Below, one piece after another: positions 3,001 through 9,000 of a stretch of DNA of 64,000 nt. This DNA is from Escherichia coli (GTDB taxonomy: Bacteria; Pseudomonadota; Gammaproteobacteria; Enterobacterales; Enterobacteriaceae), in the NCBI RefSeq assembly GCF_030013205.1, contig NZ_CP122648.1, one strand, 5' to 3'. How positions within the stretch are numbered: position 1 is the first letter of the stretch; every line of letters begins with the position of its first letter. The position numbers were made by a program.

Positions 3001-6000
3001 CTTTTTACAAAACAGAGAAGAGCATCACCGGACGACGGGCTCATAACCCAATCCATCCGGGCGGCTGCCACCGCAGGTGTTCTTCTCTGTTTTGTGGAGA
3101 AACCAACCGGCCTTGCAGGGTCGATATGATGAGGAGCAGCAAAATGGCTAGCGAACGCAGTACTGATGTGCAGGCATTTATCGGGGAGCTGGACGGCGGC
3201 GTATTTGAAACCAAAATCGGCGCAGTTCTCAGTGAAGTCGCTTCCGGTGTGATGAACACGAAAACCAAAGGTAAGGTCTCACTCAATCTGGAAATCGAAC
3301 CGTTTGATGAGAACCGAGTGAAAATCAAACACAAACTCTCATATGTTCGCCCGACTAACCGCGGGAAAATTTCCGAAGAAGACACCACCGAAACGCCGAT
3401 GTATGTCAATCGCGGTGGTCGCCTGACTATTCTGCAGGAAGACCAGGGACAATTACTGACTCTTGCGGTGAACCTGACGGAAAACTCCGCGCAGCAGGTC
3501 GTTAATATCGTTTTTAATAAACTGATTATTTATCTCATCACTGAATATCTTTATATAGTGAGGACTTATTATGTCTCAGAACTTAGACGCAACCGCAATT
3601 AATCAAGTCCATGCCCTTATTTCTGCTCAGGGTGTTAATGAAATTATCAGTAAGATTGGTGCCGATGCTGTGGCATTGCCTGAGAATTTCCGCATTCATG
3701 ATCTGGAAAAATTTAATTTAAATCGCTTCCGTTTCCGTGGTGCGCTTTCCACTGCCAGCATCGATGACTTTACCCGTTATTCTAAAGATCTTGCAGATGA
3801 AGGCACCCGCTGCTTTATCGATGCTGATAATATGCGAGCCGTCAGTGTGCTTAACCTGGGTACTATTGATGAACCAGGTCACGCAGATAACACCGCCACT
3901 CTCAAACTGAAAAAGACAGCACCGTTCTCTGCCCTGTTGTCTGTTAACGGCGAGCGTAACTCCCAGAAGTCACTGGCAGAATGGATTGAAGACTGGGCCG
4001 ACTACCTTGTGGGCTTTGATGCTAATGGTGACGCCATTCAAGCAACAAAAGCGGCTGCGGCGGTCCGTAAAATCACGATTGAAGCAAACCAGACCGCTGA
4101 TTTTGAAGACAATGACTTCAGCGGCAAACGCTCTCTGATGGAGTCTGTCGAAGCGAAAACCAAAGATATTATGCCAGTGGCATTTGAATTTAAATGCGTT
4201 CCGTTTGAAGGTCTGAAAGAACGTCCATTTAAATTACGCCTCAGCATTATCACTGGCGATCGTCCTGTACTGGTTCTGCGCATTATTCAGCTGGAAGCAG
4301 TGCAGGAAGAAATGGCTAACGAATTTCGTGATCTGCTTGTTGAGAAATTCAAAGACAGCAAAGTAGAAACCTTTATTGGTACTTTCACCGCCTGATTTCA
4401 TTACTGCAAATGCCCCTGCGGGGGCATTTATGGAAACGTAATTAACTCAATAATCGCCGGATGGTGCGGGATTCCTTTTACCCGAATTCAGCGCGGTGCA
4501 GCGCATATAAAGTGGAGAACGAAATGTCATTTATTAAAACTTTTTCCGGGAAGCATTTTTATTATGACAAGATAAATAAAGACGACATCGTGATTAACGA
4601 TATCGCGCTTTCCCTTTCAAATATCTGTCGCTTTGCAGGACATCTTTCACACTTCTACAGTGTCGCCCAGCATGCGGTGCTTTGCAGCCAGCTGGTGCCG
4701 CAGGAATTTGCTTTTGAAGCGTTAATGCATGATGCAACAGAAGCGTATTGCCAGGATATTCCCGCTCCACTGAAACGCCTTCTTCCTGACTATAAACGGA
4801 TGGAAGAAAAAATAGACGCCGTAATCCGTGAGAAATACGGGTTACCCCCGGTTATGAGCACGCCTGTGAAATATGCCGATCTCATCATGCTGGCAACCGA
4901 ACGCCGCGATCTCGGGCTTGATGATGGCTCTTTCTGGCCAGTACTGGAAGGTATCCCGGCAACAGAAATGTTCAAAGTTATTCCACTGGCTCCGAGCCAT
5001 GCCTACGGGATGTTTATGGAGCGCTTTAACGAGTTATCGGAGTTACGCACATGCGCATGAATGTTTTCGAAATGGAAGGGTTTCTTCGTGGGAAATGTGT
5101 ACCACGAGATCTGAAAGTGAATGAAACAAATGCTGAGTACCTGGTACGTAAATTCGATGCGCTTGAAGCTAAATGTGCGGCACTGGAAAACAAAATAATA
5201 CCAGTGTCAGCTGAACTGCCGCCAGCAAATGAAAGTGTTCTGTTATTTGATGCTAACGGAGAAGGCTGGCTAATTGGCTGGCGTTCTCTCTGGTACACCT
5301 GGGGACAAAAAGAAACCGGAGAATGGCAGTGGACATTTCAGGTCGGGGACCTTGAAAACGTCAATATCACTCACTGGGCAGTAATGCCGAAAGCACCGGA
5401 GAATAAAAAATGAGCGTGATAAAAACTCATACAGGAATTGTTATCACCCGAGACGGTCCGCAGGTAAAAAAACTGCACCAGACAAAGCGGATGTGGGTCG
5501 TCGGAAAAAACGAGTTTTACCACAAAGAAACCGGACGCCGCCACTTTGCAGAAAATACTCGCCGCCGACTGCTGATCGATACCATCAAGCCTATCGAGGT
5601 GAAGCATGTTTAAACAGAACGAAAAATCTATCGCTCAAATTGCTGAGTACATCCCGCGTGCGTGCCGGGGTATGCAGTTGCAGGAAGCCAAAGCACGCCT
5701 GGAGAAAAAAATTGCGCTCTATATCGATGACGGCTGTGATGCTGCCGTTCTTAACGCGGCGTTCGCGCCAGCTCTTAACAGTCATACGCGAAAGTCTTTT
5801 TTTTCGTGCATCGCAGCGCAGATCTGTAAAGGAGGCAACCAGTGAGTGAAGTTAACTATCAGGCACTGCGTGAGATAGCAAAACAGGCAACACAGGGCGA
5901 ATGGCGTGCATTCATCTCGTCGGACACTGGTACATATGCGGTACATACGCCGGGGTATGACCGTTGTGACGACATTATCAAATGGCCGGGCTTTGACGGC

Positions 6001-9000
6001 CAGAAAAATGCAGAGAACAACGCTCGTTATATCGCTGCATTTAATCCTGCGGTTGTACTGGCATTGCTCGATGTATTGGACGCATCGCTGGATGTGAAGC
6101 CTGTAGCGTCATGCATTGTTGAAGATGGGGGTATGTGTGTTGACGGGTTCAGTGAGTATGTTGGTCACTCGCTGCCTGATGGGATGCATGAGCTTTATGC
6201 TGCCCCGCCAGCGTCGGTAGTGCCGGAAGGACTAGTTAAAGCAGTGCGTTTCTATGAACAGGTAAAGTGTGAGAATCCGCCAGTCGAAACCGGAGCATGG
6301 AAAAACGCGGTTGACTGGGTGCTCAACGAGGCTTGCCAGGCTGTAAACATTGGCATCAAAGGAGCGTGAGATGAATGGACAAATATCAATTGTTCGACCG
6401 GGAGCATGTGACGATTGCGAGATACGAATGATTATTCGTCTGGCGAGGGGGAAAACAATAACTGCTCTCATTACTCCTGAAAATCTCGCATTAGCATTAA
6501 CAGGAAAGTCAGACCTGCCAGTAGAGCTAAAGCTGCGAAATATTGAGATTAAAGTGAAATAGTTATGAATACTCTTACCAAAGAATGGTTACAGAACACG
6601 ATTACCGGAATTGAGTCGATAATAGACGATAAATCGTTTGTATGTAGTGAAATAGCATTCGAAATAGGTCAGGTTAACAACATACTTACCGCATTTAAAA
6701 TTGCACTGGCATCGCTGGCAGCAGTATCGGATGAACGGGCAGCCTATGAATTATTTATGGAGAAGCGTTTCGGGGAATCTGTAGATCGCCGCAGGGCAAA
6801 AAATGGTGATAGAGAATACATGGCATGGGATATGGCGCTTGGCTGGATTATCTGGTGTCACCGCGCCGCCATGCTTCAGGGAGGCCAACCTGTAAACCAA
6901 ACTTACAACTTGCCAGAATTAATCGAAGGCATGGAAGTTTCCATTGATGTTAGCACTTGTGATGCTGATTTAGGTAATCGCTATTTCGGCACCGTCACCG
7001 AGGCGTTAGAACTTGATACAGCCAAGAATGGTTACATCCTCCTGGTTCAGGACGCAGAGCCTAACTTCGATGTAAATGGCAACTCTCCGGGAACTCCGGA
7101 TAGTTGGATAAGCTGTAGTGATCAAATGCCTGAAAAGGGCCAGAACGTGCTTATTTCGGTGAATTTCGATAGCTCTCTGGTTGAACCGCTAATATGCTCC
7201 GCACGCTATACCGGAAGCACCTTTCGGCGCGGAGATGCAACGATTAAGCCGGGTAATGGTATTGAGCAAGCAACTCACTGGATGCCGCTACCGGAACCGC
7301 CGCAGGAGGTGAAGTGATGAACAACTTAATGATCGACCTTGAGACGATGGGGAAAAATAAGGATGCACCGATCGTTTCCATTGGCGCGGTGTTCTTCACT
7401 CCAGAAACCGGAGACATCGGACAAGAATTCTATACGGTTGTTAGCCTGGAAAGTGCTATGGGGCAAGGAGCTACACCTGACGGCGATACCATCCTGTGGT
7501 GGTTGAAACAAAGCCCTGAAGCACGAGCTGCAATCTGTATTGATGATACTTTGTCGATCAGCGATGCTCTCTCAGAACTAAATCATTTCATTAACCGGCA
7601 CGCAGCCAATACGAAATATTTAAAAGTCTGGGGTAACGGGGCCACCTTCGACAACGTAATTTTACGTGGAGCTTATGAGCGAGCAGGACAAATCTGCCCT
7701 TGGGCATACTGGAATGACCACGATGTACGCACGATCGTTACGCTTGGGCGTTCCATCGGATTCGACCCCAAAATGGACATGCCTTTCGATGGCGAACGGC
7801 ACAACGCCCTGGCCGATGCCCGTCATCAGGCAAAATATGTTTCCGCTATCTGGCAGAAATTAATTCCTGCCACCAGCACAGAATTATGATTTTCCCGGGT
7901 GCAGCCGGTTTTGATGGAGAAAATTATGAACACCTTGTTTTTACTGATGGCTGAATTCAATACCCCTAACATTGAACTCTCAGCAGTTAGCCAAAAGTAC
8001 TTTGGCATGAGTCCAGCCACGGCAGAAGCAAAAGCAAACGCTTGTAAGTTGCCCGTTCCAACATATCGCATCGGCACATCACAAAAAGCAAAACGTTGCA
8101 TCAATATTCAGGATCTTGCGGAATACATAGACAAAAGACGAGAAGAAGGACGTATCGAGTGGGAACAGGTCAGAACAAGCAAACAGAAGGGCAAAGAACA
8201 TCACTAAAGAAAAAACCCGCCTAAAGCGGGTTTTCAAAAAGCACCAGCTATGATCATGCTGCTTTGCGACGACGAAGCTTACCCTGCTGCTCTTTACCAG
8301 AGACAGTAGCGTGAGTGAACGCATTAGGAGCAGCCTTCATCAGAACTTCAACAGCAGCACCCATACCTGCGAATGCTTTCATTGTGTCGAACTTAACCTG
8401 TGGCTTGGTTGCTTTTTGATCTTCCATAGAAAACTCCAGAAGCTATACCGAAACAATTCCTGTTGTTTACTCATCATCAATAGATGATACGCAATATTTA
8501 TTTTTAAATTTAAGGTTCTTTGGCGTAACTTCATCAGATATATCAAAACCGTCCAGAATTCTATTGAATGTAGCTTCTGGCATATCATCATGAACGGAAA
8601 TCTCACCCGATCGCTGCTTTCTAACCATGTTATCCACTCGCCAAATTATAGCTTCAGCGTAAACAACATAACTTGGATGCTTGATAAAGCGATGATCACC
8701 AGAATTCAAGACGCAAGACGGATCGTGGGGGACACCATCCTTGATACTAGAAATATTAACAACTAAAACACAATAACAATCGTTAACGGGGTAATAAACA
8801 GGATCATTACAAATCACATGAAGATGATTGCATGGCCCAGTTGGGGCAAGCACAGTTCCTTTCCTGTATGGCTGATAATCCGTCATGATAATTGCAAAGA
8901 AAATTCCTTAAGTTTCTGAGATTCTTCCATTTTGCCAATTATACGATTAGCCTCATCCTCGCTTTTACCCTCACTGATCAGCATTTCTTTCAGGTCTATA

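Follow-up and report, generated by a model that had tools for sequence, protein, structure and literature searches.

A probable CI-repressed PL operon in a recombinase-less lambdoid prophage of Escherichia coli: a conserved yfdPQR core, a mosaic tail, and a candidate regulatory leader RNA

The early-left operon and its promoter

The 64,000-nucleotide stretch of Escherichia coli DNA analyzed here (NCBI RefSeq assembly GCF_030013205.1; hereafter the window) matches, by sequence search, the ETEC4079 chromosome of E. coli (NZ_CP122643.1) with 100% identity. Positions 1 to ~9700 of the window belong to a 32.6-kb lambdoid prophage, of which they form the left arm; it sits in the 5' end of dusA, and our subject is the early-left operon of this prophage, a run of ten open reading frames (ORFs) on the plus strand between positions 3144 and 7889. 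An original prediction, made from the sequence alone, had placed the ten ORFs correctly, and they match RefSeq/PGAP features of NZ_CP122643.1. The full operon arrangement is present in 54 of 5,426 complete E. coli genomes. We consider it very likely that this region serves a defective mEp460/LLS/ST64B-type prophage as its PL operon, that it is repressed by CI and made up of a conserved core and a mosaic tail, and that recombination is supplied by the host. The best reading of its role is that of a lytic-phase host-takeover operon that combines shut-off of replication initiation with processing of DNA ends.

A PL-like promoter had been proposed upstream of the operon, and it is there: a sigma-70 promoter (TTGACA-18-TACATT; 2773-2802, plus strand) lies in an OL/PL region (2749-2802) together with two copies of an 18-bp palindromic operator, ATGTAGGATATCCAACAT, at 2749-2766 and 2784-2801, which bracket and overlap the promoter. 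The same operator and the same hexamers recur over a divergent, mirror-image PR-like promoter at 1969-1998. The gene for a LexA/S24-type CI repressor (2036-2686, plus strand) is followed by a terminator hairpin (2700-2731), and cro is encoded at 1740-1937 on the minus strand. The identification of the promoter as the CI-controlled PL is well supported by these motifs. Because a PL-type promoter with flanking operators is present, the operon is expected to be silent in a lysogen, and it would fire once the LexA-like CI is inactivated.

All ORFs were scanned against Pfam and PHROG profiles, and PADLOC and NCBIfam models were used as well. The DUF2303, HD, Ead/Ea22, DUF551 and DnaQ-like exonuclease assignments that had been made from the sequence all hold in these profile scans. 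The statement that ORFs of 67, 70 and 79 amino acids have no recognizable family does not, as all three belong to PHROG families (E = 1e-40 to 1e-52). The genes had also been described as tightly coupled, and this is true of seven of the nine junctions (-10 to +2 nt); looser spacing is seen between yfdP and yfdQ (65 nt in intact copies) and between yfdQ and yfdR (128 nt).

The operon opens with a frameshifted yfdP (3144-3602), a member of the PF27127 family in which 107 of 108 residues are identical to K-12 YfdP. It is followed by yfdQ (3571-4395), which encodes a DUF2303 protein (Pfam E = 3e-92; 271/274 residues identical to K-12 YfdQ), and by yfdR (4524-5060), which encodes an HD domain protein (phrog_318, E = 2.5e-110) that matches K-12 YfdR at 173 of 178 residues. 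The most likely start of yfdR is at 4524, where a GGAG ribosome-binding site precedes a 178-codon frame, and not at 4461. The product of yfdS (5051-5413) matches DUF551 weakly and is identical to K-12 YfdS over the whole aligned part (117/117). Two ORFs of 67 and 79 codons come next (5410-5613 and 5606-5845), belonging to phrog_1226 and phrog_1344 and corresponding to gp31 and gp30 of phage mEp460; then an Ead/Ea22-like gene (5842-6369), the N-terminal 80 amino acids of which match PF13935 (E = 1e-19); and then a short ORF of phrog_1222 (6371-6562), the counterpart of mEp460 gp28. The last of these short ORFs, predicted at 70 amino acids, probably starts at the ATG at 6371, which gives 63 amino acids. 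All three PHROG families carry the annotation "unknown function".

The next gene (6565-7317) encodes a 250-amino-acid protein with a YfdT-like middle and a C-terminal DUF551 domain (E = 4.5e-21). The ORF is intact, with 248/250 residues identical to mEp460 gp27; PGAP annotates it as a truncated pseudogene and a separate 63-amino-acid DUF551 gene. Because its middle segment matches K-12 YfdT (45/61 residues identical), the sequences suggest that YfdT of K-12 (101 amino acids) is a truncated remnant of such a YfdT/DUF551 protein. The tenth ORF (7317-7889) encodes a DEDDh 3'-5' exonuclease of the PF16473 (Rv2179c-like) family (E = 3.7e-75) that is identical to mEp460 gp26 at 190 of 190 residues. 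Beyond it lies the last gene of the operon, also on the plus strand, which encodes a PrtN-family protein, a predicted excisionase (7926-8207; an alternative GTG start is at 7899). The operon is closed by a GC-rich hairpin between an A-run and a T-run (8211-8235), which is terminator-like and possibly bidirectional.

The conserved core and the variable tail

The closest sequenced relative of the operon is that of phage mEp460 (NC_019716), with 97.8% nucleotide identity over 90% of positions 2700-8300. The mEp460 genes gp35 to gp25 are the same 11 genes in the same order, and their products are 94-100% identical to those of the prophage except for Ead/Ea22 (gp29), where only 55 of 175 residues are shared. 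Both phages have the same leader RNA (see below) and a dusA-type integrase system; they differ in the immunity region (cI and operators) and in the cargo carried from xis to attP, mEp460 has an intact yfdP, and head genes are lost only in the prophage analyzed here. In K-12, the CPS-53 prophage encodes YfdP, YfdQ, YfdR and YfdS that are 97-99% identical to the proteins described above, but it is located at argW, is truncated past yfdT, and has no leader RNA, small ORFs, Ead or exonuclease (Noguchi & Katayama 2016). Phages LLS and ST64B, like this prophage, have yfdP, yfdQ, an HD phosphatase gene, a few variable genes, a DnaQ-like exonuclease gene, xis and int. LLS differs in that it integrates at ssrA and in its more diverged YfdP, YfdQ and YfdR, with the lowest identities in the sampled family at about 57-63%. 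In mEp460, ST64B, LLS and this prophage (four of four yfdPQR carriers), a single O-type or "replication protein" gene is annotated and there is no recognizable helicase loader.

We collected 120 IMG/VR loci by a conserved motif of the leader RNA and counted genes in the 58 loci with at least 5.2 kb of downstream sequence. YfdR was found in 57 of the 58, YfdP and YfdQ in 54 each, YfdS in 28 and the exonuclease in 20; every other gene of the operon was found in at most 15. Based on these counts, the leader and yfdP-yfdQ-yfdR form a conserved unit, and everything downstream of it is an interchangeable, mosaic accessory tail.

The first gene of this core carries a 1-nt deletion after codon 108 (TTGCCGG to TTGCGG), which puts 44 other residues in place of the last 12 and for which PGAP calls yfdP a pseudogene. 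The apparent overlap with yfdQ exists because the frameshift extends yfdP; an intact version would end near 3505. In the AlphaFold2 model of YfdP, a helix (residues 9-39) is followed by a three-stranded sheet (44-88), and residues 99-120 have low confidence. Because the change is confined to this low-confidence C-terminal tail, outside the helix-plus-sheet core, the model suggests that the frameshifted YfdP may still be functional. For YfdQ, PDB entry 9o7m, titled "YfdQ protein", contains a homologue in 36 chains, and its match spans almost the entire length (E = 1e-44); by analogy, DUF2303 proteins may form a very large assembly. We found no paper on 9o7m in the literature searched, and the fold library that was compared does not include it; among the solved folds searched, the AlphaFold2 models of YfdP and YfdQ had no meaningful match.

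YfdR had been predicted to be a YfdR-like HD 5'-deoxynucleotidase. The HD domain and the H...HD motif are present (H50 and H69-D70, with E73 three residues past D70), the HD protein in PDB entry 2gz4 matches with E = 6e-14, and the phrog_318 annotation of YfdR relatives is deoxyribonucleoside 5'-monophosphate phosphatase. The curated cut-offs for the nucleotidase itself are missed, by a small margin for the Pfam YfbR-like model (23.9 vs 25.9 bits) and by a large one for the NCBIfam equivalog NF003009 (19.9 vs 122 bits); the NCBIfam scan added nothing else. By its profile scores, the protein is a YfdR-type HD protein and not a YfbR equivalog.

A structured leader RNA between PL and yfdP

Most of what is described here was known in some form: the operon is annotated in RefSeq, a sequenced phage has an almost identical one, it has been partly characterized in K-12, and its class was published in 2025. 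The one feature that we did not find in Rfam or in the literature searched is the leader RNA; no Rfam family covers it in the window. From PL to yfdP the leader measures 340 nt; its degree of structure is unusual (z = -5.7), and it contains two elements on the plus strand. The first is a terminator-like hairpin followed by a U-run (2960-3007), the sequence of which varies among phages while the hairpin and CTTTTTAC are retained. The second is a three-way junction (3002-3105) in which P1 is a long closing stem (~20 bp), P2 an invariant hairpin (CACCGGnCGACGGGCUCAUnACCCAAUCCAnCCGGG) and P3 a hairpin that varies.

An RNAalifold consensus of 21 distinct variants of the junction has 36 base pairs, eight of them with compensatory changes, and 97.1% of cells are paired, compared with at most 54% in slid controls. 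The invariance of P2 is partly by construction, as P2 served as the search pattern; P1 and P3 are free of that bias. The distribution of G-U pairs favors the sense (plus) strand. A covariance model of the element scores 115 bits here and detects one copy per phage genome, and in the IMG/VR loci the element is always located 110-138 nt upstream of yfdP. It is linked to yfdPQR in lambdoid phages that lack an N gene, among them mEp460, LLS, ST64B, phiNP and SfII as well as over 100 IMG/VR contigs. The element is absent from K-12 CPS-53; the covariance model had no match in HK022, and in neither mEp460 nor this prophage did it detect a second copy on the PR side. The frame of the leader is open here, and we considered whether it might be a coding N-terminal extension of yfdP; this was rejected, as stop codons precede yfdP in LLS, ST64B, phiNP and Kp4866-6, and variation in the stems is compensatory.

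For the N-less group that includes LLS, put-like antitermination has been suggested (PMC12315714). Because these phages have no N gene and put-like antitermination was already a matter of speculation, the leader RNA is the obvious candidate antiterminator. On the one hand, like putL and putR of HK022, it is a structured RNA encoded in cis, it follows closely downstream of PL, and the lambdoid phage that carries it has no N gene. On the other hand, put elements are about 70 nt long, consist of two stem-loops and occur in two copies (putL and putR), whereas the element described here spans ~100-130 nt, forms a three-way junction with a 20-bp closing stem, occurs once per genome and is not detectably related to put. 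Thus, the proposal that it represents a new class of RNA that regulates the early-left operon in cis, for example a put-like processive antiterminator or a device for bypassing Rho or terminators, is a tentative one that we would not yet favor. If true, it would explain how an operon of roughly 5 kb is expressed without N.

Sub-threshold matches to Rfam small RNA (sRNA) families were seen upstream of the junction in three other phages, at 248-366 in ST64B, 320-456 in LLS and 440-493 in phiNP. The families were STnc100 (E = 3e-5) and RprA (E = 0.007), both in the stretch of ST64B and LLS that corresponds to the leader hairpin, and DicF (E = 0.28). Judging from these matches, the variable hairpin with its U-run may be the terminator of a phage-specific sRNA transcribed from PL. 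No comparable sRNA match was detected in this window.

Lack of a recombination module and abundance of Chi sites

The original prediction noted that recombination genes are absent from the operon, and this was borne out: no ORF matches a Red, RecET, Erf, Sak or Gam family in Pfam or PHROG. No recombinase is annotated anywhere in the 32.6-kb prophage, where only RusA and a DinI-like gene were found. The recombinase-less state has already been published as a class of its own, the "no Rec module" lambdoid phages, which comprises 72 phages typified by LLS (Zheng, Casjens, Davidson, Amundsen, Smith 2025, PMC12315714). According to the same paper, early-left operons of this class open with yfdP-, yfdQ- and yfbR-like genes, sporadic DnaQ-type nucleases next to int are not counted as Rec-module members, and the phages carry many Chi sites in the correct orientation and are aided by RecBCD, with an effect on growth shown experimentally for LLS only.

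The prophage has the features of this class. Its early region is lambdoid, with divergent cI/cro promoters and an early-left operon that ends in xis; this operon encodes no strand-annealing protein, Rec-module nuclease, single-stranded DNA-binding protein or anti-RecBCD protein, and the only nuclease in it is the DnaQ-type gene beside xis. Like other members, the prophage has no N gene, a single O-type or "replication protein" gene and many top-strand Chi sites. Chi (GCTGGTGG) occurs nine times on the lambda-top strand of the 32.6-kb prophage and three times on the other strand, compared with 0.3 per strand expected from composition, which is an enrichment of about 30-fold on the lambda-top strand. 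In the window, Chi sites are located on the minus strand at 1418, 1661 and 7870, the last of them within the 3' end of the exonuclease gene. The mEp460 genome has 16 on the top and 4 on the bottom strand, clustered toward the right end. LLS growth is aided by RecBCD; the copy here is a defective prophage, so such growth dependence does not apply to it. The operon is thus a clean additional example of a recombinase-less lambdoid prophage rich in Chi.

YfdR, the exonuclease and takeover of the host

The function of the yfd genes has been studied in K-12. YfdR binds domain I of DnaA through Phe46, in competition with DiaA and DnaB, and multicopy yfdQ and yfdR together with yfdS or yfdT block initiation at oriC both in vivo and in extracts, an inhibition that does not require yfdP (PMC4776307). 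The operon analyzed here contains orthologues of YfdQ (DUF2303), YfdR (HD) and YfdS and a YfdT-like segment, and its YfdR differs from the tested K-12 protein by five substitutions.

In the exonuclease the DEDDh active site is intact, with D7 and E9 in Exo I, D112 in Exo II and H162-x4-D167 in Exo III. It scores 252 bits against PF16473 (cut-off 27) and matches T4 DexA (PDB 8kel) with E = 5e-11. It shares with DexA and with the E. coli homologue EcD the Rv2179c-like DEDDh fold family, the D-E-D-H-D residues and a tryptophan (W132, equivalent to DexA W152), and it is shorter than DexA (190 vs 227 amino acids). Two DexA residues, S87 and D90, are required for the tetramer that cuts unmodified DNA, and the 5-hydroxymethylcytosine (5hmC) specificity of EcD has been attributed to the loss of D90 (PMC12153337). 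In the HMMER alignment, S80 and D83 correspond to S87 and D90. Because both equivalents are kept, the exonuclease is, by the residue criteria of the published paper, DexA-like and not EcD-like.

Put together, these relationships are consistent with the following course of events. By analogy with the K-12 orthologues, YfdR would bind domain I of DnaA and, with YfdQ and either YfdS or YfdT, block oriC and shut down host replication. The exonuclease, judging from its T4 homologue, would degrade DNA from 3' ends. Having no recombinase of its own, the phage would rely on host RecBCD and RecA, acting through abundant and correctly oriented Chi sites. A weaker reading is that yfdPQR might serve phages that lack an annotated helicase loader, with YfdR binding the DnaB-binding site of DnaA.

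Several observations weigh against our overall reading of the operon. The DnaA-directed activity was seen only with multicopy genes in K-12, where the authors allow for an overexpression artefact, and deletion of yfdQRST gave no phenotype in normal growth (PMC4776307). No biochemical function has been assigned to either YfdP or YfdQ. Because the prophage is defective and its yfdP carries a frameshift, the operon may be in decay and no longer functional. Finally, the flanking chromosome has the same strand bias of Chi (8 vs 3), and in this prophage taken by itself phage packaging cannot be held responsible for the orientation of the sites.

The DexA relationship also allows a different role, in which the exonuclease digests host DNA to deoxynucleoside monophosphates (dNMPs), the HD protein dephosphorylates them as a 5'-deoxynucleotidase, and nucleotide pools are reshaped during lytic growth. 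Phage T5 Dmp dephosphorylates dNMPs. The phosphatase annotation of phrog_318 fits this proposal, as do the intact active site of the DexA homologue and its retained S80 and D83; DexA itself takes part in scavenging of host DNA and supports intron homing (PMC12153337). We nevertheless regard such a scavenging pair as unlikely. The two genes are not obligately linked, given the large difference in their occurrence among the IMG/VR loci, and destruction of host DNA would ill suit a temperate phage that depends on host RecBCD and RecA. Furthermore, YfdR's affinities for nucleotides are reported to be far below those of YfbR, and to be poor for normal dNMPs (Zimmerman 2008, as cited in PMC4776307).

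The same low affinity for dNMPs, as far as it is related in PMC4776307, could be taken to leave room for another substrate, and the original prediction had suggested that the nucleotidase and the exonuclease could act on nucleotide pools or nucleic-acid signals. In an anti-defense island of this kind, the two enzymes would destroy immune signals made of nucleotides or drain the pools, disarming CBASS, Thoeris, retron-type or similar systems, and the small ORFs would block host defenses. The early-left position, the fast-swapping mosaic tail and the five genes without an assigned function (YfdP, YfdQ and the three small ORFs) would all be in keeping with this. The proposal did not gain from further analysis, and we now consider it improbable, with some room left for it in the five genes just named: a PADLOC scan of the operon for defense-associated families returned only a weak match to a generic DEDDh model, among the solved folds searched neither YfdP nor YfdQ resembles a known sponge or phosphodiesterase, and the published functions point elsewhere. 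The target of YfdR has already been demonstrated to be DnaA (PMC4776307), and the closest characterized relatives of the exonuclease, the DexA-type enzymes, act on DNA and not on signals (PMC12153337).

Alternatively, the exonuclease could itself be a prophage-borne defense (HREX) that protects the lysogen by degrading the 5hmC DNA of T-even phages, as EcD does. EcD degrades only 5hmC DNA, and when plasmid-borne it protects against T4 even if expression is leaky (PMC12153337); the catalytic residues and W132 are retained in the protein encoded here. This, too, has a low probability in our view. EcD has lost the D90 equivalent to which its specificity is tied, whereas the exonuclease here retains it as D83, along with S80. 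The gene is also distal in a CI-repressed operon, beside xis, rather than a moron expressed in the lysogen, and a promoter of its own exists only as a consensus match (6674-6701).

Least of all can we support the idea of a cryptic recombination module in which YfdP and YfdQ, together with the 3'-5' exonuclease, act as an unrecognized pair for annealing or DNA binding, which would suit their location at the usual Rec-module position and the very large assembly (36 chains) of the YfdQ homologue, reminiscent of single-strand annealing proteins, but is made very improbable by the coexistence of yfdPQR with canonical modules (a complete one in ArgO145, on the basis of which the trio was argued not to be hidden recombinases, and RecT with YqaJ in phage JC1), by the RecBCD dependence of LLS growth (PMC12315714), by the lack of fold similarity of YfdP and YfdQ to the Rad52/Redbeta/Erf, RecT, RecA and Gp2.5 families, and by the high Chi content, which points to reliance on the host. 

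Other genes of the left arm and its boundary

According to the prophage annotation, the prophage is defective: the genes for the large terminase and the tape-measure protein are partial and adjacent, and head genes have been lost. Its boundary in the window is marked by a dusA remnant (9691-9819, minus strand) of 35 codons, which is the original 5' end of dusA and lies next to zur. At a distance of 32.6 kb, beyond the window (4702942-4705165 of NZ_CP122643.1), dusA is restored and the gene for an integrase of the dusA type (Rci-like) is found.

Between xis and the attachment site, a gene for a Panacea-domain (SocA-like antitoxin) protein (8883-9455, minus strand) overlaps a 139-amino-acid ORF (8467-8886). 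Together (8467-9455, minus strand) they resemble a toxin-antitoxin pair of the PanA type carried as cargo, and mEp460 has other genes at this place. A DUF2713 gene (10176-11132, minus strand; 318 amino acids, GC content 34-36%) is located between the dusA remnant and zur, where K-12 has yjbL and yjbM; it resembles a strain-specific replacement.

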